Assembly (NCBI GenBank): GCA_035623825.1 | Contig: DASPSR010000005.1 | Coordinates: 1 to 64,000 of the forward strand | Source: Nitrospirota bacterium | Lineage (GTDB): Bacteria > Nitrospirota > UBA9217 | DNA: 64,000 bases | Direction: 5' to 3' | Shown: piece by piece, positions 4,058 through 49,599 of the stretch | How positions within the stretch are numbered: the first letter of the stretch is position 1 | Layout: each line of letters starts with the position of its first letter | Translations under genes and position numbers: made by a program | Notes under the pieces: generated by a model | Seen by the model: only the letters and a program-made list of their open reading frames with translations | Databases searched by the model: none | What the model was told of the DNA's origin: nothing

Positions 4058-4133
<76 letters not shown>

Positions 4134-12934: not shown

Positions 12935-13011
12935 TGGCGCGCCCAAGAGGATTCGAACCTCTGACCTACGGATTCGTAGTCCGTCGCTCTATCCAACTGA
13001 GCTATGGGCGC
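12935..13011 (-). tRNA. tRNA-Arg(ACG)
   Basis: Anticodon arm ACGGA-CT-ACG-AA-TCCGT; CCA. Confidence 0.95.
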
Positions 13012-13080
13012 AAAACAATACACTTACAGATGCGGATGGCATCCATGCCTCGTCTGGCTGATGCTTGCTCTCCCGGACTG

Positions 13081-13593: not shown

Positions 13594-13683
13594 CGTGATA
13601 CCCTCCTTAGTATACATTTCTATATATCCGATTCAGCGGCTTTGGCATTCTGTTGCCGCTGTCTGTACATCTGTCTGAAAATC

Positions 13684-13773
13684 TGGCGGAGAGGCCGGGA
13701 TTCGAACCCGGGGTGGAGTTACCCCCACAACTGCTTAGCAGGCAGCTGCCTTCAGCCGCTCGGCCACCTCTCC
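13684..13773 (-). tRNA. tRNA-Ser(GCT)
   Basis: Anticodon arm GCTGC-CT-GCT-AA-GCAGT; long variable arm; CCA. Confidence 0.93.
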
Positions 13774-13799
13774 GCATCCTTTAAATTTTATTTTTTATC

Positions 13800-13885
<86 letters not shown>

Positions 13886-32373: not shown

Positions 32374-32970
32374 ATGGAAAACAAAGACAAACCCTTGCCG
32401 AAACCGCCCAACAGAGTTAGCGGAGGGAAAAAACAGTTTGGGCAGGAAGATGAGTGGGGATCGCTCCTGGCTGACCGCATGGCAGCGGCCATGGCAGAAG
32501 GAAAGCTAGATGATTTTTTGAAAGAGGAGTTGTCGGATAATGAATATGCGAGGAACCTAGCGACAATGATGATGGGCATGACGGGGATGTTGCCTGCTGG
32601 CGGGGGACCGTCTTCTTCGACCGCGCCAGTGTTGGAGGAGGAGGCATCTTCGGCAGGGGCTGGAACGCGGGATTCAATGAGTACAGCAGACACGATGCCG
32701 GCAGACGTTAGAAAAGCGATCGAGGGCGGAGATGTGAAAGGATTGATGGAGCTACTTCGACGCGAACATCAAAAACGGATGCCCGGACCGGAACCGGCTG
32801 CGGAAGAAAAGGCTGCTGGGCCCCGTCCTGCCGACCACCCCACTATTGATAAGAATGTCATAGATGCATTGATACGAATTGCATCGGAAAACAGCGTTAC
32901 CACGGACTGGATTGTCCTACGGGCCATCAAATTCTACGTTCAGGAATATCAGAAGACGGGTAGGCTGTAA
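32374..32970 (+). CDS. Hypothetical protein with possible C-terminal ribbon-helix-helix-like segment
   Basis: GAGGAG RBS; low-complexity linkers; C-terminus TIDKNVIDALIRIASENSVTTDWIVLRAIKFY. Confidence 0.55.
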   Translation: MENKDKPLPKPPNRVSGGKKQFGQEDEWGSLLADRMAAAMAEGKLDDFLKEELSDNEYARNLATMMMGMTGMLPAGGGPSSSTAPVLEEEASSAGAGTRDSMSTADTMPADVRKAIEGGDVKGLMELLRREHQKRMPGPEPAAEEKAAGPRPADHPTIDKNVIDALIRIASENSVTTDWIVLRAIKFYVQEYQKTGRL

Positions 32971-33017: not shown

Positions 33018-34184
33018 CTAATCTGTTGCTAGAAACCCCTGTACCAGTCTTTTGATCTCCAAATGATGCACCGGAATGTTCGGTACGTCCTTGTTCCCGG
33101 GAATCGCCAGAACATGGATGAACGCTGGACCTTTCCGCGGGCCTCTCATCGCACCCACCAAATCCTTCGCGTCCGCCACTTTATCCGTATTCCTGATCCC
33201 GAACCCTTTCGCCACCTGCTCAAGGTCTACGCAGGACGACGCAAACGTCGGCTGGTTTCCGGTGGAGCCATAGGCGCCGTTATCGATGGCGACGATCGTG
33301 AGGTTTTTCGGCGCAAGAAAGGCGGCCGTTGCCAGCGCACCTGGGTTCATAAGGAGACTTCCGTCTCCGTCAATGACGACCACCTCTTTTTTCGAGTTCT
33401 GTGCTATGCCGAGGCCGATGGGCGTGGCCATGCCCATGCTTCCGAGCATGTAGAAGTTCGAAGGCTGGTGCTTTATGAGGTAAAGCTCCTTGGAGGGCCA
33501 GCCGAGATTACTGACAACGACTTTCTTTTCAAGATATGGCGCGATTAGCTGGAGGATTTCGAACCTTGTACACTGCGCGGTTTGCATTCCTTTTGCCTCC
33601 CGCCTTTCAATTAAGATAGCAGGAGCCTCTTCGTCTTTGACGCCGCAGGTAGCTTGACCTGCCGCTGTCGGGGCACGCGGCGCTTCGCAAGCTGAATCTT
33701 CCCACACCGCGGGACTAAGCAGAAAAGCGTGAATCCTGTTCTTCAGAAAAACCCGGGGCAGTTCCCTGTCAACGACGCTGAAATCGTCTCTTGAGTTTAT
33801 CTCGGAAAACGTGATTTCCGCACCGTTCAGGATTCCGGGGAGCCTTTGGCCCATGGGGACCTGGGCCTCGATCTTTTCCTTATAGACGCCCCTCCGGCTC
33901 ACAAAAAGAGCGAGGGGAAGCTCATAGAAAGCAGTGAGGGAAAGAAGGGCGTTGATCATGTTCCCGACACCGGAGCTCTGGACGAACACTGCCGGCCGTC
34001 TGCCCGAGAGTGCGGCGCCCGCACAGATCCCGACACCCTCTTCCTCTCTCGTGAGGGGAACATGATGGAAAGACCCAGCCAGCATCTCAAGCATGGTCTT
34101 GATCTTCTCGCAGGGAAGGGAGGCGGTAAAGTCCACCCCATGCGTCTTGAGCATGGCTAGGAGTTCTTCTTCAGGACGTTGCAT
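33018..34184 (-). CDS. comDE: Sulfopyruvate decarboxylase, fused alpha+beta (ComDE)
   Basis: SLPC, LTREEEGVGICAGA, QSSGVGN, EAQVPMG (alpha half); NLGWPSKELY, NFYMLGSMG, GDGSLLMN TPP motif (beta half). Confidence 0.88.
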   Translation of the reverse strand: MQRPEEELLAMLKTHGVDFTASLPCEKIKTMLEMLAGSFHHVPLTREEEGVGICAGAALSGRRPAVFVQSSGVGNMINALLSLTAFYELPLALFVSRRGVYKEKIEAQVPMGQRLPGILNGAEITFSEINSRDDFSVVDRELPRVFLKNRIHAFLLSPAVWEDSACEAPRAPTAAGQATCGVKDEEAPAILIERREAKGMQTAQCTRFEILQLIAPYLEKKVVVSNLGWPSKELYLIKHQPSNFYMLGSMGMATPIGLGIAQNSKKEVVVIDGDGSLLMNPGALATAAFLAPKNLTIVAIDNGAYGSTGNQPTFASSCVDLEQVAKGFGIRNTDKVADAKDLVGAMRGPRKGPAFIHVLAIPGNKDVPNIPVHHLEIKRLVQGFLATD

Positions 34185-35416
34185 AGCAGGTCCTCGATCT
34201 CCTTCTCCGTTATCTTCTTTGAGATGAACTTGGGAACAACCGTATAGGTCTTTTTCTCCTGCCGCAGTCTTTCTTCACCGCCGCCGGTGATGTTCAGCAA
34301 TACGGTATCGCTCTTCCGGATCGCACCAGTTTGCACGGCTTCTGTGAGCACCGCGACAGCCACAGCGGAGGCAGGCACGATGTCGATGCCCTCCGACTCG
34401 CGGAAGGTCTCTATTGCAGCATACACCGCCTCGTTCCTGACGCCGTACATCGTACCGCCGGTTGCAGTGAGCGCGTCATACACTCCGCCTATTACCGAGT
34501 AGGCAGGATATCGAGTCGAAAGAACCCTGGTCGTGATGTGGGAGATCAGTTCGGGCTTCAGGTCATCGGGAAACAGGGTACGACTGCTCTTGTTCCAGGC
34601 GTGGAGCATGGGCGCAAACGGAAGGTTCTGCCCCAAATGCAGGGTGGTCAGGCGATTGCCAAACCGGCCATCGCGCACGAACCGCTCCGCCATCTCCCAG
34701 GCCCCGATGGCCCCCGTGCCGCTTCCTACGGCCTGAACGTAATGGTCCGGCAGTTTTCCAGTCTTCGAAACCGTCTCAAGCATCACGATGCCAAGGCCGT
34801 CGCGTTTGGCAATGTTCTTCACGCCCCCCTCAAAGGGAAACCCGAGGGTCAGAGCGATCTTCTTCGCAACATCGATGGCGTCCGCATAGTCACCGTCGCC
34901 AACAGCGAGCGTCGGAATGAGTGATGAACGATTGAGATACCACATCTCCATAAGGCACATCCGGGGCACGACGATGACCACCGGATAGCCTGTCACCGCT
35001 GACAAATGCGCAAAGGCGCGTGCCGTGTTCCCGGCAGAGGCGACAATCAGACCTTCGATGCCGTTCTCCCTGGCGTTCTGGAGCACGACCGCCGCTTCGA
35101 ACTCCTTGAACGTGCAAGTCTCAAGGAGCGCCCCTTTCTCAGGCCAGTACCCGCTGAAGGCAATATACAGGTTTTCAAGGCCAAGGCGTTTTGCAAGGCC
35201 CTGTGAGCTGTATACCAGGGGGCCCGGCTGGGCGATCCGCGGGGCATGAATCGGGAGCCAATTGAACCTCCAGACGCCGTCAGAACCGCGCTCAGTAAAA
35301 CGAACATCGCTGTAATCGCTTACGAGAAGCGCATCCTTGCAGTGCTCACAGAAGGCACAGAAGGCGTTCTCAAGAACCTTGCCACAGTTTCTGCATCGAA
35401 TGGAAAAATGGCTCAT
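34157..35416 (-). CDS. Cysteate synthase (PLP, threonine synthase-like; Methanosarcinales type)
   Basis: N-terminal Cys cluster, FSGYWPEKGA..ETCTFKE (PLP Lys), ASAGNTARAF, EGGVKN..RDG, QAVGSGTG, LNITGGG; adjacent to comDE. Confidence 0.88.
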   Translation of the reverse strand: MSHFSIRCRNCGKVLENAFCAFCEHCKDALLVSDYSDVRFTERGSDGVWRFNWLPIHAPRIAQPGPLVYSSQGLAKRLGLENLYIAFSGYWPEKGALLETCTFKEFEAAVVLQNARENGIEGLIVASAGNTARAFAHLSAVTGYPVVIVVPRMCLMEMWYLNRSSLIPTLAVGDGDYADAIDVAKKIALTLGFPFEGGVKNIAKRDGLGIVMLETVSKTGKLPDHYVQAVGSGTGAIGAWEMAERFVRDGRFGNRLTTLHLGQNLPFAPMLHAWNKSSRTLFPDDLKPELISHITTRVLSTRYPAYSVIGGVYDALTATGGTMYGVRNEAVYAAIETFRESEGIDIVPASAVAVAVLTEAVQTGAIRKSDTVLLNITGGGEERLRQEKKTYTVVPKFISKKITEKEIEDLLCNVLKKNS

Positions 35417-36630
35417 GACTTCTCACCTTCGATCATACTGCCGATCAGTTCCATGATGTCAGTGATCTGTATCCGGTTTTTATGTCCTACCATGGCCTCG
35501 TTCACCTTGGCATAACAGGCCGGACAGCTCAGGATAAGGCGGTCAGCCTTCTTTGCCACGGCCTCGTCAATGGTCAATCTGCCTATGGCAACGGCGTTTT
35601 CGTGATACACTTTCCTCGCCGCTCCTCCCGCCCCGCAACACCGCGAGTTCAGTCCATTCCGATCAAACTCCAGCAGCGTGAGTCCCGGTATGCTGCGGAG
35701 CACCTCCCGCGGCTCTTCGATCACACCAACTCCACGGGTGAGATAGCAGGGATCGTGATAAATTACCCGTTCATGCAGCTCTTTTCGATACTTCAGCTTG
35801 CCTTCTTTTACCGCCGCTGCAACGAGTTGTGTGATATGACGGATCTTGAACGGGAGGTCGCTGCCATAGAAAACCGGCCAGTCCCTGCTCATGATATTCA
35901 CGCAACAGGGGCAGGAGCAGACGAGCGTCTTGACACCCCGTGCCCGGTACCCTTCTACAAGCCGCCTGACCAGGTCCGCGAGCAGGTCGTGCTGACCCGT
36001 GATAAAGAGCGGGAAACCGCAGCAAACCTCTTCCTCGGGAGGGAGCATGGTGAAAGGTTCGCCTATGGCGCCCAGAACCAGTGCGTCGCCCCGCACCATG
36101 GGCTGGGCCTCGTAGGCGCCCGTGCACCCAGCATAATACGCGATTTCCGCCCTCTCGGCAACCTTCACCTGCTCAGGGAACCACGGCTGGTAGCGGTCTG
36201 CTGCAGGCTTGTCGTAGGGATTGCCGCTCCTGCTTACAGCGTTCGGCACGCTGGCCTGTGCGCCGATGGGCCCGAGACCGCGCTTGACCATCTCTTTTCT
36301 AAGCGTGGGCCAGAGACGTTGCGTGAAGATGCCGACGGGGCAGTTCTGTCCGCAGGCGCCGCAGGTGGTGCATTCATAAACCGCCTTCACGAAATCTTCG
36401 AGCAGCTTGCGGTCGACCTTTCCCGGCCCGAAGAACCGCGCCTTAAGACCGTCAGTTGCGCGGATAAACTCGCGGAACATACGGATCTTCTCAGGCGGCG
36501 ATACCGTGGGGTTTCCGGTCACATCCTGGATAGGGCAGTGCTTCAGGCACTCTCCGCACTGAGTGCAGGCGTCGATCTCAAGGACCTGTCGGGGAGAGAG
36601 TTCTTCCGTGAATGATCGTTTATTCTTCAT
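35413..36630 (-). CDS. HdrD/DsrK-like Fe-S oxidoreductase (2x[4Fe-4S] plus two CCG domains)
   Basis: CTQCGECLKHCP, CTTCGACGQNCP; YYAGC...EVCCG...CPCC; YHDPC...RCCGAGG...CPAC. Confidence 0.85.
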   Translation of the reverse strand: MKNKRSFTEELSPRQVLEIDACTQCGECLKHCPIQDVTGNPTVSPPEKIRMFREFIRATDGLKARFFGPGKVDRKLLEDFVKAVYECTTCGACGQNCPVGIFTQRLWPTLRKEMVKRGLGPIGAQASVPNAVSRSGNPYDKPAADRYQPWFPEQVKVAERAEIAYYAGCTGAYEAQPMVRGDALVLGAIGEPFTMLPPEEEVCCGFPLFITGQHDLLADLVRRLVEGYRARGVKTLVCSCPCCVNIMSRDWPVFYGSDLPFKIRHITQLVAAAVKEGKLKYRKELHERVIYHDPCYLTRGVGVIEEPREVLRSIPGLTLLEFDRNGLNSRCCGAGGAARKVYHENAVAIGRLTIDEAVAKKADRLILSCPACYAKVNEAMVGHKNRIQITDIMELIGSMIEGEKS

Positions 36631-37306
36631 GCATCACCAAACGAAGCGCCTTCTTCCGCTTTCTCGCCTCCATCATCACCAGCGGGGCCGTGAAGATGTG
36701 CGTTGGCAGGAAAGGGATCAGCACCAGAACAAGAATAAAATGAAGTAAGAACAGCAGACTGGCCGGCGCAGCGGCCGGCCTGAGCGTCACAATGCCCCAT
36801 GCAAACAATTTTACGTCCACAAGATCTGGCTTGTACAGAACGTGCATCAGGACGCCCAGAGAGCTGATTACAAGCACCAGGCAGAGAAGGAACATGTTAG
36901 CAGGAGAGGCATACTTTTCCCACCTGGTGAACAGCCTTATGACTAGGATGTATACCAAAGCAGGAGGAAGGACGTACCCGGCTATCGTTCCCGGCGTCTG
37001 TATGCACCATACCCATGCTGGAACAGGGTTCAGAAAATACCGCAAATGCCGAAGGAGAACCAGAAGAAAGCTTGCGTGGAAAGCCCACTCCCCGACCCAA
37101 AGAGCGGGATTCACCATCAAAAGCCTTGTGAACAGAAAAACATCTGAGACCGTGAGCGCCCATACCTTCGCCGTTGTTGGAGAGGCTGGTTCGGTGGAAA
37201 GTCTTTTCATTGCCTTCCACCATACCAGCCCATGCAGAAGAAACCGCGCCCAGAATACCGAATATGCGCTGTAGGCTGCAACGACCAATATCGTCCCCAT
37301 AGTCAT
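36620..37306 (-). CDS. NarI/DsrM/HdrE-like membrane cytochrome b
   Basis: About five hydrophobic segments; FHASFLLVLLRHLRYFLNPVP (DsrM/HmeC-like) and LLH...PTH provide four candidate heme His ligands. Confidence 0.78.
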   Translation of the reverse strand: MTMGTILVVAAYSAYSVFWARFLLHGLVWWKAMKRLSTEPASPTTAKVWALTVSDVFLFTRLLMVNPALWVGEWAFHASFLLVLLRHLRYFLNPVPAWVWCIQTPGTIAGYVLPPALVYILVIRLFTRWEKYASPANMFLLCLVLVISSLGVLMHVLYKPDLVDVKLFAWGIVTLRPAAAPASLLFLLHFILVLVLIPFLPTHIFTAPLVMMEARKRKKALRLVMHEE

Positions 37307-37328
37307 CAGTCCGGCAAGAGCTGTTTAC

Positions 37329-37337
37329 AGTATAACA
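37329..37337 (-). promoter_or_regulatory. Possible extended -10 promoter for the cytochrome b-hdrD-cysteate synthase-comDE unit
   Basis: TGTTATACT on the minus strand about 22 nt before the ATG at 37306. Confidence 0.4.
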
Positions 37338-37434: not shown

Positions 37435-37752
37435 TCATTTTTTCACTACGAACGTGATGCTTGCATCCTTGGGGACGTTCAGGCCCGCCTCGGCCTCGAT
37501 TGCTTTCAGAATGCCGGAAGGCACGGGACAGGCCACATGCTTGAGGTGTTTTGATGCTGACCGGTACACGGGATTACTCTGGAAGCCAGTAAGCGCGGCG
37601 AACCGGTCTAGGGTCGCGATGTCTTCCAGCATCTTCTTCACCATGCCGCACTCCGTGTCCAGGGAAATCGCGATTGTTTTGTCTTTCCTGGTTTCTGCTC
37701 TAATGGAGACGGAAAAACCGCATGTTCCTGAGTTGACTATTACCGTTGTCAT
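37435..37752 (-). CDS. Small conserved Cys-containing protein (DUF6951-like)
   Basis: SGTCGF, TECG, HVACPVPSGILKAIEAEAGL pattern. Confidence 0.65.
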   Translation of the reverse strand: MTTVIVNSGTCGFSVSIRAETRKDKTIAISLDTECGMVKKMLEDIATLDRFAALTGFQSNPVYRSASKHLKHVACPVPSGILKAIEAEAGLNVPKDASITFVVKK

Positions 37753-37874
37753 AGGTATTTGTCCCCCTGCCCGACTATGCCTCAAGGTATAAGGGGCGGG
37801 AAGGTCCCGGGAAAGCATCGACCTCCCGCCCCTGTAACCTCATTTATCGCCAGGAGGACCCGGCGATAATCTCT

Positions 37875-39860
37875 CTATGCCTTTATCTCAACGGGGGTGT
37901 TCGATTTTTCGAGCAGCTCCTTCAGATTCGGGAACTTGTCTTTCATGTGCGGGATATGCATTGCTTGCATAAACTCCTTCTCAAAGGCCGGCTCAGTTGC
38001 GATTTCGACGAACTGCACCCAGCGGGCTCGTTCGTCCGCCTCAGTACGCTTCCTGCGGTTCAGAAGCGCCATCCGTGCACCATCACCCGCAGCGTTTCCT
38101 ACGACGACGACCTTCTCGATCGGCACGTCGGGGAACATCCCCAGGGTGAGAGACGCCTCGCGATCGATATGGCTGCCGAAGGCGCCTGCAAGCTCGACGC
38201 GGTCGAGCTTGGTGACGCCCATCTTCTGCATCATGAGCTTTGCACCAGTGTAGAGAGCGCCCTTGGCGAGCTGGAGCGCCCTCACATCACCCTGGGTCAC
38301 GGTGATGTCCTGATTTATCGATGTTTCTTCAGCCCAGGCGAGTACGTATTCGGGCTTCCCGTCGGCATCGCGGCGCACGCGGTTGGTCCCTGTATCCATG
38401 ATGAACTTGCCGCTCTTGTCGATGATGCCCGCCGTGAACATCTGAGCTATGACGTCAATAATGCCGGACCCGCAAATGCCCTTGGCGTTGATCTTGCCCT
38501 CGATGTGGGTGTGCCAGTCAGCCTTGCCGATGACCATGTACTGCGGATCTTTCGTTGCGGGATCGATGCGCACCTTCTCGATCGCCCCGGGAGCGGCACG
38601 CATCCCGAACTTGATCTGGGCGCCCTCGAAGGCCGGACCGGTGGCGCAGGAGGTGGAGCAGACCCGGTCCTTGTTGCCCAAGAGCAGCTCGCCGTTCGTT
38701 CCGATGTCGATGATCAGCACCATCTCGTCCTGATTGTATTGCTCCTGGGCGATCAGCACGCCTACGTTGTCGGCGCCCACGAAGCCGGCCTCGAGAGGCA
38801 GAACATGGATATAAGAGCCGGGGTTGATGCGGATTCCGAGGTCTCGTGCCTTGATATCGAGAGAGCGCTGAACCGCCGGAATAAAAGGAGAGCGTCCGAT
38901 GAAGGTCGGGTTCAGGCCCAAAAAGATATGATGCATGGCAGTATTGAAAACAATGGTGAGGTCATCGATGGTGTGGCCCTGTTGCGGCCCGTCCTTTTGG
39001 ACTTCGGCAACGACCTTCTCGATGATCTCGTTCAAACCGGTGATGATGGAGTCCTGCATGGTCTTGAGGCCGCTTTCGTTCGCCATGGCATACGTGATGC
39101 GTGACATCACGTCTTCTCCGTAGGGTACCTGGGGGTTCATCATCGACTCGGTGTTGATCACCTTGCCCGTTGAGAGGTCGCAAAGGTAGCCCACGCAGGT
39201 CGTGGTGCCGATATCAACCGCCAGACCATAGCACACGTCCACGTGGCCAGGCTCGGCCTTGATGATCTCCCTGCCCTGCCACACCGTGAGCGTGATGGTC
39301 CATTCTCCCTTTCGAAGGATGTCCTGCAGGTCCCGCAGGACCTGGTAGTCCATCGTGAGGCCTTTCAGGCCATAGGTCTCTTCGAGGGCGTTGACAATGC
39401 GCTCGAAGTCCCCGGTCGTCATGTCGTGGAGCGTCGGTTTGGTAAGCGACAGGGGGTACTTCTTGACCGCCGGATCGAGAGCGATGGAGAGCTCTTTGGC
39501 CGCTTTCCGTACCACCTGCTTCCCTGCCCGGGACCGCTCGGGAACAAAGACCTTCAAGTCGCCACGCACCTCGCATTGGCAGGCGAGCCTGATGCCTGGT
39601 CCGTCCTCGGGTTTGATATGCTTTAGCTCGTCCGGAGCCGGGTGATGCGGGAAAATATGCACCATGCCCGACTCGATGTTGTCCTTCTCGAAGTACCCTT
39701 CTTCGATCCGGACTTTGCACTTGCCACAGACCTTTTTGTTGCCGCAGAGCGCCTCGATGTCGACTCCGAGCGCCTGTGCGGCCTGGAGGACTGTCTTTCC
39801 TTCATCAACCTCGCCGCGGCGGCCCGAGGGCTGGAATATCACTTTGTATTTCTTGGACAT
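37875..39860 (-). CDS. ATP-dependent corrinoid reductive activase (RACo/RamA-like, ASKHA)
   Basis: N-terminal [2Fe-2S] CGNKKVCGKC...RLACQC; DIGTTT, DIGTNGE, CATGPAFEG, GICGSG, GNAAG. Confidence 0.92.
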   Translation of the reverse strand: MSKKYKVIFQPSGRRGEVDEGKTVLQAAQALGVDIEALCGNKKVCGKCKVRIEEGYFEKDNIESGMVHIFPHHPAPDELKHIKPEDGPGIRLACQCEVRGDLKVFVPERSRAGKQVVRKAAKELSIALDPAVKKYPLSLTKPTLHDMTTGDFERIVNALEETYGLKGLTMDYQVLRDLQDILRKGEWTITLTVWQGREIIKAEPGHVDVCYGLAVDIGTTTCVGYLCDLSTGKVINTESMMNPQVPYGEDVMSRITYAMANESGLKTMQDSIITGLNEIIEKVVAEVQKDGPQQGHTIDDLTIVFNTAMHHIFLGLNPTFIGRSPFIPAVQRSLDIKARDLGIRINPGSYIHVLPLEAGFVGADNVGVLIAQEQYNQDEMVLIIDIGTNGELLLGNKDRVCSTSCATGPAFEGAQIKFGMRAAPGAIEKVRIDPATKDPQYMVIGKADWHTHIEGKINAKGICGSGIIDVIAQMFTAGIIDKSGKFIMDTGTNRVRRDADGKPEYVLAWAEETSINQDITVTQGDVRALQLAKGALYTGAKLMMQKMGVTKLDRVELAGAFGSHIDREASLTLGMFPDVPIEKVVVVGNAAGDGARMALLNRRKRTEADERARWVQFVEIATEPAFEKEFMQAMHIPHMKDKFPNLKELLEKSNTPVEIKA

Positions 39861-39968: not shown

Positions 39969-40622
39969 TTATTTCTCATTCGTCCCTCGGACCTTCGCAT
40001 TGCTTCTCCCGTAAGGGCAGACATTGATGCAAAAACCGCAATTGGGCTTGCCGACGGTTTTCAATTTGGCCGTCTTGTGGCTCTTACAGACGTCGAGCCT
40101 GACTAGTTCCACGAAAGGGTCGTGACGGGACCACACGGCCCCCGTTATCGCTTTTGACGGGCAGTGCTCGACGCAGAGCTCGCAATCGCCGCACCTGCTT
40201 TGTTCGATCGGCTCGTCCGCCGCAAGGCGAGCATCGGTCAGAACGGTCGCCAGTGAGAGTCGCGGGCCATGCTTGGGATTGATTAGGAGGCCGTTCTTTC
40301 CAACCCAGCCGATACCGGCCGATGTAGCCGCCATCTTATGGGTGAACAGAGAATAGAGCTTGGAGATGAAGGACCCATTCGTGCGGTCCGAGTCAGGCGG
40401 GATGGCAAGGGTGCGGTGGCCCCTGGCCTTCAGGAACCTCACAGTCCGCCGCTGAAGCTTGGCCAGCAGGGCGAGGGTGTTCTCGTTCAATTTTCTGTCA
40501 ACGCCGATCGAAACAGCACGGTTCAGATGGCTGATCTCCCCGCTCAGGTATCCGCGCAGATCAGCAACGCCGACCACTGTGGCGCCAAGATCGAACAGCT
40601 CCTTGCGGAGCGAGGTCTTCAT
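39969..40622 (-). CDS. QueG/reductive dehalogenase-like 2x[4Fe-4S] protein
   Basis: HKMAATSAGIGWVGKNGLLINPKHGPRLSLATVLTD; CGDCELCVEHCP; CGFCINVCP. Confidence 0.8.
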   Translation of the reverse strand: MKTSLRKELFDLGATVVGVADLRGYLSGEISHLNRAVSIGVDRKLNENTLALLAKLQRRTVRFLKARGHRTLAIPPDSDRTNGSFISKLYSLFTHKMAATSAGIGWVGKNGLLINPKHGPRLSLATVLTDARLAADEPIEQSRCGDCELCVEHCPSKAITGAVWSRHDPFVELVRLDVCKSHKTAKLKTVGKPNCGFCINVCPYGRSNAKVRGTNEK

Positions 40623-41314
40623 TTTGCGCTCTTCTTCGCTTCGGCCTCATCCTTCATCTTCTTGAGGGAGCTGATCATGTTTATGGCGTCCCTCAAGGCG
40701 TTCGTCGCATCCTTAGCGTACCCGTCGGCGCCGTACTTTTCGGCAACGTCCTGGGACACCGGGGCGCCACCGATCATGATCTTCACATTGGGGTTCTTGG
40801 CCCGAAGGTCCTCGATGACCTTCTTCATACCGGTCATGGTCGTGGTCATCATGGCCGAGAGACAGACCAGGTCAGAATCGGTCCGGAGCTGCTCCTGCAC
40901 AAACTTGTCGAGCGGAACGTCGCGGCCAAGGTCATAAACGGTGAATCCGGCCACGTCGAACATCATTTTTACAATGTTCTTGCCAATGTCGTGCACGTCT
41001 CCTTCTACGGTCCCGATCACTACCGAGCCTCTCACACCGAGGTCTAGCTGCTTGACATGCGGCTTTAAGATGTCGAGTCCCGCATACAGAGCGTCGGCGC
41101 ACATCAGGAGCTCAGGCACGAAGTACTCCTGGGCCTCGAACATCCGGCCGACCTCTACCATTCCTGAGACCAGGCCGTTGAAGATGGCGTCGTTCGCGTC
41201 AACTCCCTCCGCGAGCACCTCGTTGGCGGCCTCCTTGGCAGTGTCCTCATCGTATTGTATGACCGCGTTCCTCAGCTTCTCCAACAGCCCTTTCTTTTTT
41301 TCTTCTGTAGCCAT
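40619..41314 (-). CDS. Methyltransferase cognate corrinoid protein (MtaC/MtsB-like)
   Basis: Cap domain FVPELLMCADA; GTVEGDVHDIGKNIV (DxHxxG), SAMMTTT, IGGAP. Confidence 0.93.
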   Translation of the reverse strand: MATEEKKKGLLEKLRNAVIQYDEDTAKEAANEVLAEGVDANDAIFNGLVSGMVEVGRMFEAQEYFVPELLMCADALYAGLDILKPHVKQLDLGVRGSVVIGTVEGDVHDIGKNIVKMMFDVAGFTVYDLGRDVPLDKFVQEQLRTDSDLVCLSAMMTTTMTGMKKVIEDLRAKNPNVKIMIGGAPVSQDVAEKYGADGYAKDATNALRDAINMISSLKKMKDEAEAKKSAK

Positions 41315-41318
41315 AGGA

Positions 41319-42338
41319 TTACCTCCTGTAGTTGTTCACTTCGTCCATCATCGCCTTGAAATTATCGACCGGCACCGTGGGCCAGATGTCACAGCCCGGC
41401 CAGACCGCGCTCACACCGTCATCAATGCACTTCCGGACCGTGGCACGGACCAAGTCCGGGGTCCCGGCGACGAGAACGTTGTAAGGGTCGTAGTTCCCGA
41501 ATACGAGTGCCTTGGGGCCCAGCTTCTTGCGGGTCTCGGCGACGTCATTCTTCTGGTCCACGCTGATCGCCCTGGCGCCGCTTTCCGCCATGAACGGCAC
41601 GATGTCGTTCGTCTTGCCGCAGATGTGGAGAACGCTCGGGACCTTGAGTTTCGCGAAGATCTTCGTCAGGTACGGCAGGATAAGGCTCTTGAAGACACGG
41701 GGTGAGAGCACATCTGAAGTAGCGCCCATCTCCCTCACGGTGATGTAGTCTACGCCTGCCTTTTCGTATTCTTGCGCCACCTGGATGGTCACCCCGGAGA
41801 GCGTGTCCAAGAGCTTGCCGATCTTGTCCGGCTTTTTGAAGGACAGCTTCAGGAGGTCGTTCAACTCCATTACCTGTCCGGCCAGGGTGAAGGGCCCGAG
41901 CACGTATGAGCCGACAGCCGCTTTGTCGCCAATATCGCTCTTCATGAACTTGATCACATCGAGCATCATGGGGACCCTCCCGCGCCTGACGAGGTCGGCG
42001 GGTACCACCAGTTCCATTTCTGCCTCGTTACGTACCAGTTTCTTCTTGATCGTGGGGTAGAGCAGGTCCTCGGAATGGGCATAGACGTTGATTTCGCAGC
42101 CGAGGGCTTCTGCCTCGATGCAGAGATCAAAAGGGGCGACGCCGCATTCGAAGCCGAACAGTTTATGCGTTGATGCGGCCGCAGCGGCCATCATCTTTGC
42201 GTCTAGATGAGTTGCCGCGAACTTCTGGTTGAGGGACTTGAGACCCTCGGTGGTCACGTTCCCCATGCCGCTGAAGCACGGCGGCCTGTCCACTGCCTCG
42301 CCGGCAAAGAGCTTTAGTACACGTTCTCGTGCGTTCAT
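41319..42338 (-). CDS. MtaA/MtsA/CmuA-family methylcobamide:thiol methyltransferase (UroD fold) 1
   Basis: PFDLCIEAEALGC, GPFTLA, Zn motif LHICG...PGCD. Confidence 0.87.
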   Translation of the reverse strand: MNARERVLKLFAGEAVDRPPCFSGMGNVTTEGLKSLNQKFAATHLDAKMMAAAAASTHKLFGFECGVAPFDLCIEAEALGCEINVYAHSEDLLYPTIKKKLVRNEAEMELVVPADLVRRGRVPMMLDVIKFMKSDIGDKAAVGSYVLGPFTLAGQVMELNDLLKLSFKKPDKIGKLLDTLSGVTIQVAQEYEKAGVDYITVREMGATSDVLSPRVFKSLILPYLTKIFAKLKVPSVLHICGKTNDIVPFMAESGARAISVDQKNDVAETRKKLGPKALVFGNYDPYNVLVAGTPDLVRATVRKCIDDGVSAVWPGCDIWPTVPVDNFKAMMDEVNNYRR

Positions 42339-42475: not shown

Positions 42476-43423
42476 TCATTTTCTCGCTCCCCCCGATTCG
42501 AGTTTAGTCAGGAAGTCTGAGAAGCACTTCCTGATCGGAAGCTGTGCATTGTCAGGTATCTTTCCCTGCTCCGAATAAACGAGCGTCGAGAGCAGGATAT
42601 GCGCCGTAGCTACGGCCGGGAAGATCCGGGACGCAGTGACGATGGGCCCGTAAAAGCTATAATCGCTCCAGAGCACCGAAGACATCCCCTGCGCCACGGC
42701 ATCCATGGCCTTGAAGGCGTCGAGGCTCCAGAGCGTCTTTGCCTCCTTCCACATATGAGTGCCGTTCGAATAGGCGCCGCCGCAGGGAAGGCCGTACTTT
42801 TCCTTGATCAGGCGGTTCGCCACGAGCGAGAAGGACGTTGACGGCAGGTTCATGACCGATGTGTCGACGATCACGGTATCGAAGTCTCCGGCTCCCTGTT
42901 CCAGCAACCGCTCTAGCGAACTCACCCTGCCCGCGGGTGACTGGTCCTTATCGTCAAAGGCCTGCACCACAACATGCTTTATGCCGAGGTCCTTTAGTTT
43001 CTGCACCTGCCCCTTGACGTCTTTGTCCCAGGGCGTAATGCTGTTATACAGGAACTTGTCCTGCACCCCGAGCTTGGACACGTACTCCGTCGCCTTCGCG
43101 CGCTGCTCGGCGACCCACATGTCGATGCCAAAGGGCATGTTCGTGGTCTCAAGGAAGAAATCGATGTAGATCTTTGCCTCTTCCGGCGTGTTGGCCACCA
43201 TGGCGACCATGCCGGGGACGCCGGTTGACGCAGAGAGCGATTCCTGCTGCTTGATCAGTTCGGAGGCGCGCCTGCGGTCGAAATTGCCCTTCCGGTCCTG
43301 CATGATCTTGTCCTTGTTGTGGAACATGGAGGCGATCAGGAGCGGCGGCCTGTCGCCGGGTTGTCCGCCGATCGCCGTGCCGGCGATGGAGTAGACCTTT
43401 TGTTCTTTAGCAAACTTGAACAT
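42476..43423 (-). CDS. mtrH: MtrH/MtgA-family methyl-pterin:corrinoid methyltransferase
   Basis: MFKFAKEQKVYSIAG..IGGQPG..PPLLIASMFH, PFGID, YNSI, IVDT, PCGGAYSN, YGP. Confidence 0.85.
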   Translation of the reverse strand: MFKFAKEQKVYSIAGTAIGGQPGDRPPLLIASMFHNKDKIMQDRKGNFDRRRASELIKQQESLSASTGVPGMVAMVANTPEEAKIYIDFFLETTNMPFGIDMWVAEQRAKATEYVSKLGVQDKFLYNSITPWDKDVKGQVQKLKDLGIKHVVVQAFDDKDQSPAGRVSSLERLLEQGAGDFDTVIVDTSVMNLPSTSFSLVANRLIKEKYGLPCGGAYSNGTHMWKEAKTLWSLDAFKAMDAVAQGMSSVLWSDYSFYGPIVTASRIFPAVATAHILLSTLVYSEQGKIPDNAQLPIRKCFSDFLTKLESGGARK

Positions 43424-43622: not shown

Positions 43623-44141
43623 TTAAAATACGCCGTGGTCGAACTTTGGCTGTGGAAGATACTCCCACTTCTCCCCCTTGCGGTACTTAGCCTCAATGTC
43701 AAGGCACTTCAGTGCGTACTCGAAGGCATAAGGAATGCCCGGCCCACCAGGCACGAAGCCCCCGAGGATCATGCCCACTGATGCCGCCTCGAAAATCTCG
43801 CCCGTGGTCGCTCCCGCATTGATCGCAGGGATCACGTGGATTATGCACCGCGGCGAGCAGTAACCCACACCGCCTGCCATAAACATCAGTTCCTTCACCT
43901 TACGGGAAAGGGCCCCATCGCCAAATATTGTCGCATAGAAATCGGCGAAAGTCCTCCCCGGTTCAGGGGTCACGGTGTTGATGATCTGAAACATCCTCGG
44001 CACGAACCCGCACTGCTTCTTCATGTACTCGTTCACTTCTTCCAATGTCATTTTCTTATCAGCCATTTTTTTTACCTCCCCTTGCCCGGGTGCTTTCTGT
44101 GCCCCGGAAAAAAGTTTTTTCAACTCCTCCAAGATGCCCAC
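43623..44141 (-). CDS. Carboxymuconolactone decarboxylase/AhpD-like protein (alternative start at 44066)
   Basis: GFVPRMF, DGALSRKVKEL, CSPRCIIH, GATTGEIFEA. Confidence 0.8.
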   Translation of the reverse strand: MGILEELKKLFSGAQKAPGQGEVKKMADKKMTLEEVNEYMKKQCGFVPRMFQIINTVTPEPGRTFADFYATIFGDGALSRKVKELMFMAGGVGYCSPRCIIHVIPAINAGATTGEIFEAASVGMILGGFVPGGPGIPYAFEYALKCLDIEAKYRKGEKWEYLPQPKFDHGVF

Positions 44142-44339
44142 AAACCGCACCTCCTTCCTTACATATAAGCTGGAACCGCCTCACCTCCTTTTCTCTAGTC
44201 CGGATAAACCGGAATCAACAAAATAGCGTCACGGTCACGATGCCGGTTCATCTTTGCGGCCACATAGTCCGTGTTCTCATCTTTCCGTTTCGAACTAAGC
44301 CTCACGATACAAGCCTCGTAACCATATGACGTCACCGTC

Positions 44340-45368
44340 TTATGGTTTCGATTCATGCGCCGCCTGAATGAACTTCCTGATATTGTCATAGGGCACCGTG
44401 GGCGGAATATCGCAGCCCGGCATGAGCACAAAGCCGCCGCCCGTACCGCAAGTTTTAATTACATCCTTGCAGGTGTTTTCCACGTCCTGCACGGAGCCGT
44501 TTAGCATAATCTTCACCGGGTCCACATTACCGCCGAAACACATCTTCCCGTGGAGCACTTCATTTGCCTTTACCATGTCCGTCTTGTGGTCCAGGCTGAT
44601 GCAGCTTGCCCCTGTTTGCGGGAAGAGGTCAAGTCGGTCCGTGGTGTTGCCGCAGATGTGGACCAGCGTATGAACGCCCTTGGACCTCGCCCAGTCAGTG
44701 AATTTCTTGAGATAGGGCACAGCAAACTTCTCGAACTGCTTCCGGGAGATGAGATCTCCCGAGGCTGTGGGGTCCGCAAGGCTTATGACCTCAAGCGTTT
44801 TGTCCGCGACGATTGGTTCGTAGAGGTGGATCAGGAGATCGGTGGCGAAGTCCACGACCTTCTCGACAAAGGCCGGCTTCTTGAAGGTGGCCTTCATCAT
44901 GGCCTCCTCTCCCACGAATCGGGCGCCGAGGGTGAAGGGGCCCCAAGCCGTCATGGTCACAGCATAGGTGTCGCCGATCTTCGCTTTCGTCTGGCGCAAA
45001 GACTTTTTTACAACATTTATGGTCTCGTCCTTGTCTATGTCAGCAATCTTGAGCTTCGCTAGGTCCTCCTCCGACGACACGAAGTGGCCCTCAAGGTCAG
45101 GCGCACCCATCTCGCGGAACTTGATCTTCCCGCCCAGGGCCGAGGCGTGGAAATTATTGTAACCCGAACCGGCGTATACGACATCGCACTGAAGCGTTTC
45201 GCTCATGGCAACGAGCATGGCGGTCATCTTGTCAGCGTTCCGTGCAAGTTCCTCGAATGACGTCCCGAACCGCTTGATGCTCCACATACCCGCGCCGAAG
45301 AGGGTCACCGGCAACCTTTCGGTCTTGCCTCCCTCAAAGGCTTTGAGAATCACGTTCTTCGGTTTCAT
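44340..45368 (-). CDS. MtaA/CmuA-family methylcobamide:thiol methyltransferase (UroD fold) 2
   Basis: GPFTLG, ADPTASGDLIS, Zn motif VHICG...MPGCDIP, GNVDP. Confidence 0.87.
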   Translation of the reverse strand: MKPKNVILKAFEGGKTERLPVTLFGAGMWSIKRFGTSFEELARNADKMTAMLVAMSETLQCDVVYAGSGYNNFHASALGGKIKFREMGAPDLEGHFVSSEEDLAKLKIADIDKDETINVVKKSLRQTKAKIGDTYAVTMTAWGPFTLGARFVGEEAMMKATFKKPAFVEKVVDFATDLLIHLYEPIVADKTLEVISLADPTASGDLISRKQFEKFAVPYLKKFTDWARSKGVHTLVHICGNTTDRLDLFPQTGASCISLDHKTDMVKANEVLHGKMCFGGNVDPVKIMLNGSVQDVENTCKDVIKTCGTGGGFVLMPGCDIPPTVPYDNIRKFIQAAHESKP

Positions 45369-45746: not shown

Positions 45747-45762
45747 TGCAACTACGATGCCA
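45747..45762 (-). promoter_or_regulatory. Sigma54 -24/-12 promoter for the methyltransferase operon
   Basis: TGGCATCGTAGTTGCA on the minus strand (GG-N10-GC). Confidence 0.8.
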
Positions 45763-46085: not shown

Positions 46086-46952
46086 CTACTTTTTCCCGAT
46101 GGCATGCAGTATTTCGCTCACCGAGTCTGATCGATTCATGGTGTAAAAGTGGAAATACTTCACTCCGTTTTTCATCAGGTCCTCACATTGCCGGACCGCG
46201 AATTCCACGCCGCGCTTCCGCATTTCTTCGGGCATGTCCATCACCGGCTCCATCCTTTCGAGGATTTCCCTCGGCACCGTAGCATTGCAGAGACTGGCGA
46301 ACTCTGCGACTCTCTTACAGTCTATGATCGGCATGATTCCCGGTAGAACGGGTATCGAGATGCCGAGTTTCTCGGCCCGGTCCATGAAGGCGTAATAGTA
46401 GTGGTTGTCGAAGAACATCTGAGTGATGGCGAAATCCGCACCAGCATCGATTTTTTGCTTCGTAAATTCCATGTCTTTCTCTATGCTTGGCGACTGCCCA
46501 TGCCCCTCGGGATACACTGCCACGGCAATAGAAAAAGAGCCGTATTTCTGGATGAGATCGACGAGGTCTCGTGCGTATTTAAACTCTCCCTGGCCTAGGC
46601 TAAAGCATGGTGCGTTCCTTGGCGGGTCGCCGCGTAGCGCAAGAATGCTGTCGATGCCGGCGGCCTGGTACTTCTCAAGGAGCACAGACAGGGACGCCCT
46701 CGTCGCCCCGACGCACGTAAGGTGCGACATTACGGTGAGCTCAGTCTCATTTTTTATCTCTGTAAGGGCCTCGAACGTCCTATCCTGAGTGGTGCCGCCT
46801 GCCCCGTAAGTAACGGAAACGTACAGCGGGTCGAAGACCTTAAGTTCTTGTACGACCTTAATGAACGCGTCTCTTCCCGCATTCGACTTCGGCGGGAAGA
46901 ATTCGAAGGATATCCCTTCCTTCCGCTCTTTCAGTTTTTCTATGAGTTTCAT
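46086..46952 (-). CDS. metF: 5,10-methylenetetrahydrofolate reductase
   Basis: ISFEFFPPK, SVTYGAGG, HLTCVG, LALRGDPP, YPEGH, ITQMFFD, HFYTMN. Confidence 0.95.
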   Translation of the reverse strand: MKLIEKLKERKEGISFEFFPPKSNAGRDAFIKVVQELKVFDPLYVSVTYGAGGTTQDRTFEALTEIKNETELTVMSHLTCVGATRASLSVLLEKYQAAGIDSILALRGDPPRNAPCFSLGQGEFKYARDLVDLIQKYGSFSIAVAVYPEGHGQSPSIEKDMEFTKQKIDAGADFAITQMFFDNHYYYAFMDRAEKLGISIPVLPGIMPIIDCKRVAEFASLCNATVPREILERMEPVMDMPEEMRKRGVEFAVRQCEDLMKNGVKYFHFYTMNRSDSVSEILHAIGKK

Positions 46953-48157: not shown

Positions 48158-49492
48158 CTAGGGATTGATCCCGTACTTTTTGAGTTTAAGGTAAAGGGTT
48201 TTCCGGTCTATCCCCAAGAGTTGGCTTGCTTTGGACTGGTTGTTGTTCGCTTCCTTCAGGACCTGCAGGATGTATTTCTTCTCCATCTCTTCGAGGGAAG
48301 GGTTGGTCCCGAGTTGCGCGACGACAGAAGGGGATGGTATCGAGAGGTCTTCGGCCCCAAGAGTGTCCGATTCGCACAGTATCACTGCCCGTTCGATAAC
48401 ATTCTCGAGTTCCCGCACGTTGCCTGGCCAGTGGTATGCCGCAAGCATTTCCAGGGCATCGGGCGTGAGGCCAGTGATGTGCTTGGCGAGCTTTTTCGCA
48501 TACTTCTCGAGAAAATGGCGGGCAAGCTCCGGGATGTCCTCTTTCCGCTCCCGGAGGTGTGGAATGGCAATGTTGATTACGTTCAATCGGTAAAAGAGGT
48601 CTTCCCTGAACTTTCCGGCCTTGATCAGCTGAGGAATGTCCTTGTTCGTCGCGGCGATTACCCGCACGTCAACAGAGAGGGTCTTGTTCCCGCCCACCCG
48701 CCGGAACTCGCCGGAATCGAGGAACCGAAGGAGTTTTGCCTGGAGCGCGATAGGCATCTCTCCGATCTCATCGAGGAAGAGAGTCCCCTTATCCGCCACT
48801 TCAACGAGTCCGTGCTTCATCTGGTATGCGCTGGTAAAGGCTCCTTTCTCGTGGCCGAAGAGCTCTGACTCGATGAGGTTCTCTGACAGGGAGGCGCAAT
48901 TTAGGGCGATGAACGGAGCCTCCTTGCGCGTGCTGTAGTGCCAGACGGTGTTCGCGACAAGCTCCTTGCCCGTGCCGCTCTCGCCCTGGATGAACACAGG
49001 CGAGTCCGTGGGAGCCACCTTCTGGATGAGCGCGAGGATGTCCTTGAGCTGTTTGCTTTTACCGACGAACTCCAAGGGAGATTCGATTCTGACCAGCTCC
49101 TGCTCCAGAAGCTTGCTCTTGACTGAGAGCCTGCCGTACTCGTAGGCCCGCTCGATGACGATCACCAGCTCATCGAGTTTGTAGGGCTTGGTGAGGTAGT
49201 CATAGGCGCCGTTCTTCATGGCCTCCACCGCGGTCTCCACCGTTGCCTTGCCGGTCAGTACGATGATAGTTGGCGCTTCCGAGTCCTCCTTTAGCTTCTT
49301 CATGAGCGATATTCCGTCCACGCCGGGCATGACGATGTCGAGGAGGATCACATCGAACGAGCGATTGCGCAGGAGCCGCAGGGCCTCGCTTCCGTCTGCG
49401 GTTGCCTCCACGGAATAGCCTTTACGGGTAAGCTCTTTTTTCAGGAGCCTTCTGAATGGCTCTTCATCATCCACGACGAGAATGTTGATCAT
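48158..49492 (-). CDS. Sigma54-dependent response regulator (NtrC/AtoC family)
   Basis: Receiver VDDE/LDIVMP; GESGTGKE, ELFGHEKGAFTSA (GAFTGA variant), FLDEIGE, WPGNVRELEN; Fis HTH. Confidence 0.95.
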   Translation of the reverse strand: MINILVVDDEEPFRRLLKKELTRKGYSVEATADGSEALRLLRNRSFDVILLDIVMPGVDGISLMKKLKEDSEAPTIIVLTGKATVETAVEAMKNGAYDYLTKPYKLDELVIVIERAYEYGRLSVKSKLLEQELVRIESPLEFVGKSKQLKDILALIQKVAPTDSPVFIQGESGTGKELVANTVWHYSTRKEAPFIALNCASLSENLIESELFGHEKGAFTSAYQMKHGLVEVADKGTLFLDEIGEMPIALQAKLLRFLDSGEFRRVGGNKTLSVDVRVIAATNKDIPQLIKAGKFREDLFYRLNVINIAIPHLRERKEDIPELARHFLEKYAKKLAKHITGLTPDALEMLAAYHWPGNVRELENVIERAVILCESDTLGAEDLSIPSPSVVAQLGTNPSLEEMEKKYILQVLKEANNNQSKASQLLGIDRKTLYLKLKKYGINP

Positions 49493-49599
49493 AATAGGAA
49501 ACTCAACGGCGAAGGTGTGAAAAACACGCAGATTTTTCGTAACTGCAAGACTTAAAGATTTCCTCTGCGCTTTTCGCAGTGAAATGCGCCTTTGATTTC

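Follow-up and report, generated by a model that had tools for sequence, protein, structure and literature searches.

The organisms known to have coenzyme M (CoM) are methanogens, archaea that oxidise alkanes and a few aerobic bacteria that oxidise alkenes. We analysed a stretch of 64,000 nucleotides (hereafter the window; positions 1 to 64,000 of contig DASPSR010000005.1, assembly GCA_035623825.1) from a Nitrospirota bacterium of the UBA9217 lineage, whose minus strand carries genes for a NarI/DsrM-type membrane cytochrome b, an HdrD-type iron-sulfur protein, cysteate synthase and the fused sulfopyruvate decarboxylase ComDE. Together with a sigma-54-controlled corrinoid methyltransferase operon, a two-component system and a protein of the SsuA fold, this operon forms a gene set that is conserved, with a patchy distribution, among anaerobic, sulfite-reducing Nitrospirota. 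The chances appear about even that the set provides a ComF-independent route to CoM or a close sulfonate thiol, with the cytochrome b and the HdrD-like protein acting as a quinol-linked S-S reductase.

The closest counterpart of the two biosynthetic genes is the class II (phosphoserine) CoM pathway of Methanosarcinales and Methanomicrobiales, which uses the same first enzymes, with cysteate synthase and a fused ComDE encoded in a cluster and a third function adjacent. In that pathway the third gene is of the COG1900 type (MMP16/ComF), whereas here its place is taken by the cytochrome b/HdrD pair, with the SsuA-fold protein co-occurring, and the host is a dsr-bearing bacterium in whose genome methyl-CoM reductase (MCR) was not found. 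The last step of CoM biosynthesis is debated even in methanogens, according to passages of PMC11844431, which also present ComF/MMP16 as dispensable in Methanosarcina at high sulfide and cite an abiotic reaction of sulfide with sulfoacetaldehyde as reported. In a sulfidogenic cell, a reductive reaction for finishing or rescue may thus suffice. Among bacteria, Xanthobacter autotrophicus makes CoM with ComA and XcbB1-E1, as described in parts of PMC9457059. That pathway starts from phosphoenolpyruvate, proceeds through unrelated enzymes and belongs to aerobic alkene metabolism, whereas the present set corresponds to the archaeal phosphoserine route.

As for the membrane pair, it resembles HdrDE, the methanophenazine-linked CoM-S-S-CoB reductase of Methanosarcina, which likewise combines a b-type cytochrome with a cytoplasmic protein carrying two [4Fe-4S] motifs and two CCG motifs. 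It differs in that no curated HdrD model matched, the nearest model being TfrB, below its cut-off, in that its quinone is presumably menaquinone, and in that no source of heterodisulfide is evident since MCR was not found. In DsrMK of the DsrMKJOP complex, which reduces the DsrC trisulfide, a CCG protein and a NarI-type cytochrome b likewise act together on an S-S bond. The cytochrome b of the operon finds its best match in the DsrM model and fold, yet it scores 67.8 bits against a cut-off of 300, and the HdrD-like protein scores 87.4 against 400 for DsrK.

In the reading that we prefer, cysteate synthase would join sulfite and phosphoserine to give cysteate, a housekeeping aminotransferase would convert cysteate to sulfopyruvate, and ComDE would decarboxylate the latter to sulfoacetaldehyde, from which CoM or a very similar two-carbon sulfonate thiol would arise without a COG1900/ComF enzyme. 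The cytochrome b and the HdrD-like protein would form a membrane complex that passes electrons from menaquinol to a cytoplasmic S-S bond involving this thiol, be it its disulfide, a mixed disulfide or a persulfide, whereby the thiol would be freed or kept reduced. The corrinoid system, comprising an MtrH-like protein, a corrinoid protein and zinc-type MtaA-like enzymes, might then use the thiol, and the exchange of methyl groups between pterin and thiol would be a soluble analogue of the Mtr and MtaA reactions of methanogens. A thiol product, with CoM as the simplest candidate, is suggested by the HdrD-type coupling with intact CCG sites, the co-inheritance of MtaA-like enzymes, the AhpD-like protein with its Cys pair and the protein of a sulfonate-binding fold.

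Gene identities and layout of the operon

The early CoM steps, cysteate synthase and ComDE, are as secure as sequence allows. Cysteate synthase (34157..35416, minus strand, 419 amino acids, PALP domain) scores 467.6 bits with the equivalog model TIGR03844 (cut-off 324.9) and 110.1 bits with PF00291. ComDE (33018..34184, minus strand, 388 amino acids) combines TPP_enzyme_N and TPP_enzyme_C domains. Its alpha part (residues 5-161) passes TIGR03845 with 177.2 bits against 147.95, and its beta part falls just below the cut-off of TIGR03846 (219.7 against 221.5), which a homologue on the archaeal contig L125, described below, passes with 232.5 bits. Phosphonopyruvate decarboxylase was also considered for ComDE and rejected, given a TIGR03297 score of 210.9 against a cut-off of 312.5 and the cysteate synthase partner.

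The HdrD-like protein (35413..36630, minus strand, 405 amino acids) contains two CxxCxxCxxxCP and two CCG motifs, matches PF02754 (CCG) twice with 79.8 bits and the two-[4Fe-4S] domain PF13183 once, and its cluster cysteines are all invariant among 37 orthologues. Its best curated model is TfrB, subunit B of the thiol:fumarate reductase that works on the CoM and CoB thiols, with 183.4 bits against a cut-off of 385 that it therefore fails; the match spans only positions 128-485 of the 488-position model, whose N-terminal domain lies outside it. Lower scores were obtained with LdhH (121.2, cut-off 800), GlpC (95.5, cut-off 278), DsrK and GlcF (28.3, cut-off 333). The earlier note on this DNA held that a grouping with GlpC/LldE-type substrate dehydrogenases would undo the CoM interpretation; the protein scores higher on TfrB than on GlpC or LdhH and so falls outside that group, and the conserved cluster contains no flavoprotein gene, the expected partner of the GlpC, LldE-LutA and GlcF types. 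One source automatically annotates the orthologues as 'heterodisulfide reductase subunit D'. The Nitrospirota clade forms a single 50% cluster, and its nearest relatives in a library of cluster representatives are 45, 43, 40 and 39% identical; TfrB is also the best model for all the nearest relatives (35-45%). The relatives of the HdrD-like protein on L125 are named Euryarchaeota and Hydrothermarchaeaceae by their sources, with Chloroflexota at about 40%. A complex prediction of HdrD with ComDE gave no answer (score 0.00) and constitutes no evidence either way.

The partner cytochrome b (36620..37306, minus strand, 228 amino acids) has no Pfam match and only a weak one to DsrM (NF038037), and its Atlas model aligns to the DsrM/HmeC cluster with a TM of 0.83. 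That the pair might be the organism's own DsrMK was considered and rejected, as a canonical DsrK (731.8 bits) adjoins dsrAB on a contig other than that of the window (C38). With a canonical DsrK and dsrA elsewhere in the genome, the cytochrome b/HdrD pair is an extra complex. The host is thus of the dissimilatory sulfite-reducing type, a physiology in which sulfite and sulfide are at hand.

Many of the clusters contain a second, paralogous pair, in which a NarI-like cytochrome b (PF02665) is joined by an HdrD-like protein sharing 27-33% identity with the first, either just upstream of the first pair or divergent from cysteate synthase (L116, 7047-9100, minus strand; L118, L120, L063, L068, L078, L086, L087, L091 and L102). 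It is possible that the two paralogous pairs serve two different S-S substrates.

The four minus-strand genes had been described in the earlier note as overlapping head to tail, and inspection of the junction letters confirmed the coordinates. The cytochrome b stop shares 11 nt (ATGAAGAATAA) with the HdrD start, the overlap between HdrD and cysteate synthase is 4 nt (ATGA), and ComDE starts 28 nt inside the 3' end of the cysteate synthase gene. The names given there to the four products also agree with our profile searches. The extended -10 element suspected upstream, TGTTATACT (37329..37337, minus strand), lies 5' of the operon; the G, A, A and T of its TGnTAnAnT pattern are the same in all 11 orthologous upstream regions that were aligned and its flanks vary, although the element is absent from the output of a sigma-70 scan of the window. 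As the motif letters are invariant and their surroundings are not conserved, we take TGTTATACT as the operon's own promoter, and the four genes as one separately promoted operon. The same scan yielded no terminator between the cytochrome b gene and the gene for the DUF6951 protein upstream. Among 10 pieces of assembled contigs from a single metatranscriptome run that aligned, three at ≥99% identity, one lies on the cytochrome b gene (37111-37309, no mismatches) and another on HdrD (36245-36564, one mismatch), a weak hint at expression.

Distribution of the gene set

We sampled 301 Nitrospirota genomes of at least 90% completeness, drawn evenly across the phylum, counting HdrD orthologues at E 1e-120 and cysteate synthases above the curated cut-off, and reading adjacency from coordinates. 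Each of the two is present in 49 genomes; 47 have both, and in 45 of these the two genes are adjacent, an arrangement far beyond chance. In one of the two genomes with cysteate synthase alone (G302) a frameshifted HdrD gene lies next to it, and in the other (G288) a 41%-identical HdrD-like gene occupies the same position. Where HdrD occurs alone, one case (G067) concerns a contig of 3.5 kb, which breaks off within the cysteate synthase gene. The other, G079, is a real exception, with a pair and no cysteate synthase. Its locus (L140, 6847-10590) comprises a TauE/SafE permease, a DsrE-like protein, a NarI-like cytochrome b and an HdrD-like protein (71%), and the genome carries PF01837, the COG1900 (ComF/MMP16) family. 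A sulfonate thiol may be taken up by this bacterium instead of being synthesised.

The earlier statement that no ComF is recognisable beside these genes extends to the whole genome, since PF01837 was not found in the window's genome (89.65% complete). It is likewise missing from all 49 sampled genomes with cysteate synthase, and from five further genomes in which the pair is located elsewhere; it occurs in 6 of the 301 genomes, all of one other family (f3). The search detected PF01837 in the two controls, M. jannaschii and M. acetivorans.

Within genera the cysteate synthase trait is patchy (for example one of three, two of five or eight of nine genomes), as expected for an accessory module. 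Among 61 relatives of the window's genome, cysteate synthase exceeds its cut-off in 16, all of the window's own family, and in all 16 loci the genes from the second URO-D gene through ComDE are syntenic as far as the contigs reach (15 loci of 14.6-20 kb and one 3.4-kb contig). In two genomes (G004 and G028) the contigs end inside or just after the methyltransferase half, and the missing CoM half decides nothing there. In G001, a genome from the genus of the window (77% completeness, 10 contigs), the genes for HdrD, cysteate synthase and the corrinoid activator RACo are fragmented, through assembly error or decay. Near-identical DNA is present in peat metagenome runs. Two contigs titled Rokubacteria/Rokuibacteriota (L061 and L062) carry an HdrD 79-80% identical to that of the window, one of them with most of the cluster; these copies could reflect horizontal transfer or a binning error.

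The HdrD-like protein also retrieved 80 contigs, most with the same gene order and eight with the pair but no cysteate synthase nearby. Five of these eight were examined, and all five genomes have cysteate synthase with ComDE elsewhere, an MtaA-like orthologue and the SsuA-fold protein; thus, all modules co-occur even when unlinked. Two of the five have two copies of the pair. In an alternative setting, the pair stands among genes for an SQR-like flavoprotein, an MMPL transporter, a LolA-like protein, an S-adenosylmethionine (SAM) methyltransferase and a DUF1302 protein. Loci of this type (L079, 5604-14170; L081, L096, L097 and L109) come from several Nitrospirota, including a contig of a Nitrospirae metagenome-assembled genome from a manganese enrichment. 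One further locus has the pair between a RuBisCO-like protein and a three-domain rhodanese. Outside the cluster, then, the pair is found beside sulfur-transfer genes, namely those for the three-domain rhodanese, the DsrE-like protein with TauE and the SQR-like flavoprotein. In a tree of HdrD made by a quick method (82 rows), the copies in the MMPL setting are interspersed with the operon copies.

The association is not limited to Nitrospirota. A metagenome scan with the nearest HdrD relative yielded four contigs, of which only L125 (17.2 kb, 33% GC) reaches far enough downstream; it is archaeal, as judged from its CTP-dependent riboflavin kinase. It carries genes for a DsbA-like protein, a NarI-like cytochrome b, an HdrD-like protein (38%), an AhpD-like protein (54%), a second DsbA-like protein and a PNPOx-like protein. 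A convergent operon encodes a branched-chain-type aminotransferase, cysteate synthase (493.9 bits), ComDE (232.5 and 182.3 bits) and an NMT1_2/SsuA-like protein, each gene overlapping the next by 4-19 nt. The gene partnership seen in Nitrospirota is thereby repeated on this contig.

The SsuA-fold protein and the corrinoid methyltransferase genes

The cytoplasmic SsuA/TauA-fold protein (51764..52717, plus strand, 317 amino acids), whose gene is divergent from that of the histidine kinase, is a second candidate for the missing step after sulfoacetaldehyde. Over its full length it is 42% identical (E 8e-94) to the protein whose gene shares a 4-nt overlap with ComDE in L125, and Cys74, Cys257 and seven His residues are invariant in 17 sequences including the archaeal one. 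It scores 76.9 bits with SsuA_fam, below the cut-off of 163.5, and the match to the SsuA model begins at residue 3, which leaves no signal peptide region and argues against a periplasmic location. The closest folds to its alignment-based model (pLDDT 86.8) are TauA and SsuA (E 5.7e-18, TM 0.76) and the enzyme Thi5; a single-sequence AlphaFold version (pLDDT 33.8) was set aside. The protein is present in 52 of the 301 genomes, namely 48 of the 49 with cysteate synthase and G004, G024, G028 and G067, and it follows cysteate synthase as closely as the HdrD-like protein does. G288, which has cysteate synthase, gave no match at E 1e-60, and G079 has none. In three genomes with dispersed modules the gene stays beside ComDE. 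Directly after it in the window, on the opposite strand, lies a gene for a 547-residue protein with ACT and metallo-beta-lactamase domains (52732-54375, minus strand).

Upstream of the four-gene operon and on the same strand lie the genes of the corrinoid system. Beyond them lies a gene for a methylenetetrahydrofolate reductase (MTHFR; 46086..46952, PF02219, 321.8 bits). It is followed by a second MtaA/CmuA-family methyltransferase (44340..45368), which scores 187.9 bits with TIGR01463, below the cut-off of 235.4. A sigma-54-type promoter, TGGCATCGTAGTTGCA (45747..45762, minus strand), lies 394 nt before this gene. The pattern gives two matches in the window against 2.2 expected by chance, and TGGCAY-N5-TTGCW recurs 388-429 nt upstream of the second MtaA-like gene in 19 of 30 orthologous loci; the site carries weight because of its conserved position, not because of the count in the window. 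A sigma-54-dependent response regulator (48158..49612, minus strand) and a PAS-GAF histidine kinase (49600..51630, minus strand) form the two-component system, whose genes adjoin the cluster on its other side in loci of the G035 type.

Next comes an AhpD/CMD-like protein (43623..44150, minus strand, likely start at 44066; PF02627, 25.3 bits) with a conserved CSPRC-x2-H motif, a spacing that is not the CxxC of AhpD. It is among the most conserved products of the cluster (about 87-95% identity, and 79% in the broken assembly G001, against 75-86% for HdrD), and the motif is kept in its 54%-identical counterpart, encoded after HdrD in L125. The MtrH-family methyl-pterin:corrinoid methyltransferase (42476..43423, minus strand) scores 186.9 bits with PF02007 and 339.6 with NF002142 (cut-off 287). 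It precedes an MtaA-like methylcobamide:thiol (CoM) methyltransferase of the URO-D fold (41319..42338, minus strand), which passes the cut-off of the 'methylcobalamin:CoM methyltransferase' subfamily (NF004889, 266.4 against 244) and that of MtaA/CmuA (TIGR01463, 246.6 against 235.4). The closest solved structure to this first URO-D protein is MtaA of M. mazei (4AY7, E 1.5e-47), but it remains below the equivalog cut-offs of MtaA and MtbA (254.6 against 400 and 183.8 against 600). In both URO-D proteins, LHICG/HICG and PGC align with identical letters of 4AY7; the H-x-C and distal C of MtaA are, we assume, zinc ligands, and the matching letters are present in both.

The remaining genes of the methyltransferase operon encode a corrinoid protein with B12-binding and B12-binding_2 domains (40619..41314, minus strand; TIGR02370, 200.6 bits, under the cut-off of 215.3), a ferredoxin-like protein with two [4Fe-4S] motifs that resembles QueG/RDH in that region (39969..40622, minus strand), and a RACo-type reductive activator of corrinoid proteins (37875..39860, minus strand) with RACo_C_ter (323 bits), middle, linker and Fer2 domains. 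Last before the four-gene operon is a small Cys-containing DUF6951 protein (37435..37818, minus strand; PF22263, 105.6 bits), whose likely start is the second ATG, at 37752. Among 14 control genomes this family occurs in Methanosarcina acetivorans only, and the gene is syntenic in nearly all loci. CmtA of M. acetivorans is a soluble methyl-tetrahydrosarcinapterin:CoM methyltransferase, and in a CmtA-like manner the first URO-D protein, the MtrH-family protein and the corrinoid protein could form a soluble chain for methyl transfer from pterin to thiol.

A second methyltransferase cluster is found elsewhere in the same genome (contig C9; L123, 7356-16001), with genes for a URO-D protein, a CobW-type GTPase, CbbQ/NorQ, a VWA protein, a DUF2284 protein, another URO-D protein and a corrinoid protein. 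The window's genome has six MtaA/CmuA-family genes in total.

Alternative routes and significance

The earlier note had proposed a CoM reading in two forms, with the pair either reducing a CoM disulfide at the expense of quinol or replacing ComF in the last, reductive sulfur insertion. The gene identities, the absence of ComF and TfrB as the best model support the general reading in part, but the evidence does not settle the choice between the two forms. We rank the possible roles of the pair with S-S reduction, persulfides included, ahead of an SsuA-fold enzyme assisted by the pair, followed by the pair as the synthase itself and lastly by pathways that make no CoM. Several points weigh against S-S reduction of a local sulfonate thiol. 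From the observed gene identities, overlaps, promoters, synteny and co-occurrence we infer what the product is (CoM itself included), which way the electrons flow, on what substrate HdrD acts and that MtaA-like enzymes use the thiol. The HdrD-like protein is below all curated cut-offs, and no HdrD model in the searched libraries matched. The Methanosarcina HdrDE needs coenzyme B, for which we did not search. The pair of G079, in a genome lacking cysteate synthase, can evidently work without local synthesis. MCR alpha (PF02249) was not found in the window's genome at its 89.65% completeness, and no known CoM-consuming enzyme was identified, which leaves methyl-CoM without an evident sink; moreover, methyl transfer from a methyl-pterin to CoM is, on general thermodynamic grounds, a strongly exergonic reaction that would lead into a dead end. 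Sets of URO-D-type, MtrH-type and RACo proteins also form bacterial and archaeal O-demethylases that need no CoM, so the methyltransferase half may be chemically unrelated. No methyltransferase genes are found in the 17.2 kb of L125, and the link between thiol and methyltransferases rests on co-inheritance in Nitrospirota alone. Lastly, much of the synteny comes from one phylum, whose genomes are not independent, and DNA carry-over is possible for the RNA contigs, whose uncovered parts are uninformative.

That the cytochrome b/HdrD pair is itself the CoM synthase, converting sulfoacetaldehyde to the thiol with quinol and sulfide or persulfide in place of ComF, seems to us quite unlikely. The pair does hold the operon slot that the COG1900 gene has in methanogen clusters, as depicted in portions of PMC4045070. 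Its HdrD gene is translationally coupled to cysteate synthase and co-occurs with it almost perfectly, PF01837 is absent from all 49 cysteate-synthase genomes, and elsewhere the pair adjoins rhodanese and DsrE-like sulfur carriers. CCG proteins also process sulfane sulfur, as DsrK does on the DsrC trisulfide. This place in the operon, together with the absence of COG1900 throughout, keeps the idea alive. However, G079 has a 71-72%-identical pair without cysteate synthase or the SsuA-fold protein, which suggests that the pair is not purely biosynthetic, and two genomes have second copies of it in the MMPL/LolA-like cluster that the tree intersperses with the operon copies. CCG clusters are not known to reduce a C=S bond or a hemithioacetal, and a membrane-bound, quinol-linked enzyme would be unusual for a low-flux cofactor step. 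Together with the sulfur-carrier neighbours (rhodanese, DsrE-like and SQR-like), G079 favours a general S-S or persulfide reductase over a dedicated synthase; the exception and the competing SsuA-fold candidate shift weight away from the pair as synthase.

The SsuA-fold protein may instead replace ComF, possibly with the AhpD-like protein as a CxxxC carrier of sulfur or electrons, the pair then only re-reducing a disulfide or the CoM pool; sulfoacetaldehyde would be held by its sulfonate group during thiolation. This appears unlikely, although its gene closes the archaeal aminotransferase-cysteate synthase-ComDE-SsuA-fold operon with a 4-nt overlap with ComDE, is found in 48 of the 49 cysteate-synthase genomes and only four others of the 301, stays beside ComDE in the three dispersed genomes, and is absent from G079, which is without the biosynthetic genes. 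The lack of a signal peptide region, the two Cys and seven His residues invariant across bacteria and the archaeon, and a fold shared with taurine- and alkanesulfonate-binding proteins and with the enzyme Thi5 point the same way. Conversely, the gene lies 17.6 kb from ComDE in the window, divergent from the kinase and sigma-54 regulator genes, a position that fits a ligand sensor equally well, and of the 60 loci with room for it, only 14 place it no more than 6 kb downstream of ComDE. The SsuA fold has no enzymatic precedent for thiolation, and G288 has cysteate synthase with no match at E 1e-60. A related, third way to finish CoM independently of COG1900, which we consider improbable as well, would have the SsuA-fold protein hold sulfoacetaldehyde, the AhpD-like protein and/or sulfide provide the sulfur, and the cytochrome b/HdrD pair provide the electrons. 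In such a scheme, which invites similar doubt, menaquinol would drive the two-electron reduction of an S-S intermediate by the pair.

It is least likely of all that no CoM is made, sulfoacetaldehyde instead becoming an osmolyte or lipid head group in the form of taurine, isethionate or sulfoacetate, with the pair and the methyltransferases serving independent purposes, for instance an O-demethylase that feeds the Wood-Ljungdahl pathway. The missing MCR and CoM sink fit this explanation, as do the methyltransferase gene content, equal to that of O-demethylase systems, the adjacent MTHFR gene, the second pair copies in a lipid-export-like cluster (MMPL, LolA-like, DUF1302) and the fact that general synteny (yidC, FKBP) is also conserved among close relatives. 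Yet the conserved set is devoid of sulfoacetaldehyde reductase, taurine aminotransferase and aldehyde dehydrogenase, its modules co-occur even when unlinked, and an archaeon, too, combines HdrD-like and AhpD-like genes with those for cysteate synthase, ComDE and the SsuA-fold protein. The H-x-C...C letters aligned to the presumed zinc-thiolate site of MtaA are retained in both URO-D proteins, and a thiol product is in keeping with the translational coupling to an enzyme of the thiol/disulfide type.

If S-S reduction by the pair in the service of a sulfonate thiol is correct, CoM extends to sulfur-cycling bacteria of peat, groundwater and sediments, the gene set being present in 49 of the 301 sampled genomes. 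It joins archaeal early steps, an HdrDE-like complex and MtaA-like methyltransferases in the absence of ComF, offers two concrete candidates for a new terminal step, and raises the question of the role of a methyl-thiol carrier in a cell without methyl-CoM reductase. Should the scheme in which the SsuA-fold protein, a sulfur donor and the pair act together hold true, CoM would serve non-methanogenic, sulfate-reducing Nitrospirota as a functional methyl carrier or redox thiol, and likewise some marine or hydrothermal archaea, no MCR having been seen on the contig. Matches to comDE, hdrD and mtaA in metagenomes should not be taken as markers of methanogens. In open-access full texts, supplements being outside the scope, no account of an HdrD pair together with cysteate synthase/ComDE came to light for Nitrospirota or any other non-methanogen; supplementary tables on 'Candidatus Sulfobium'/Thermodesulfovibrionia may list the genes.

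On the far side of ComDE, a conserved hypothetical gene (32374..32970, plus strand) is convergent on it and syntenic beside it in most loci, even where other modules lie elsewhere. Its product matches no Pfam or NCBIfam family; weak Atlas leads (0.86-0.87) suggest a possible ribbon-helix-helix C-terminus, and an RNA-library contig covers 32601-32753 without mismatches. An Rfam search found no RNA family inside the cluster. The window lies near the replication origin, with dnaA, dnaN, gyrB, yidC and parB. It also carries the small signal recognition particle RNA and five clustered tRNA genes (11871-13885, minus strand), and a sixth tRNA gene at 4061-4133.

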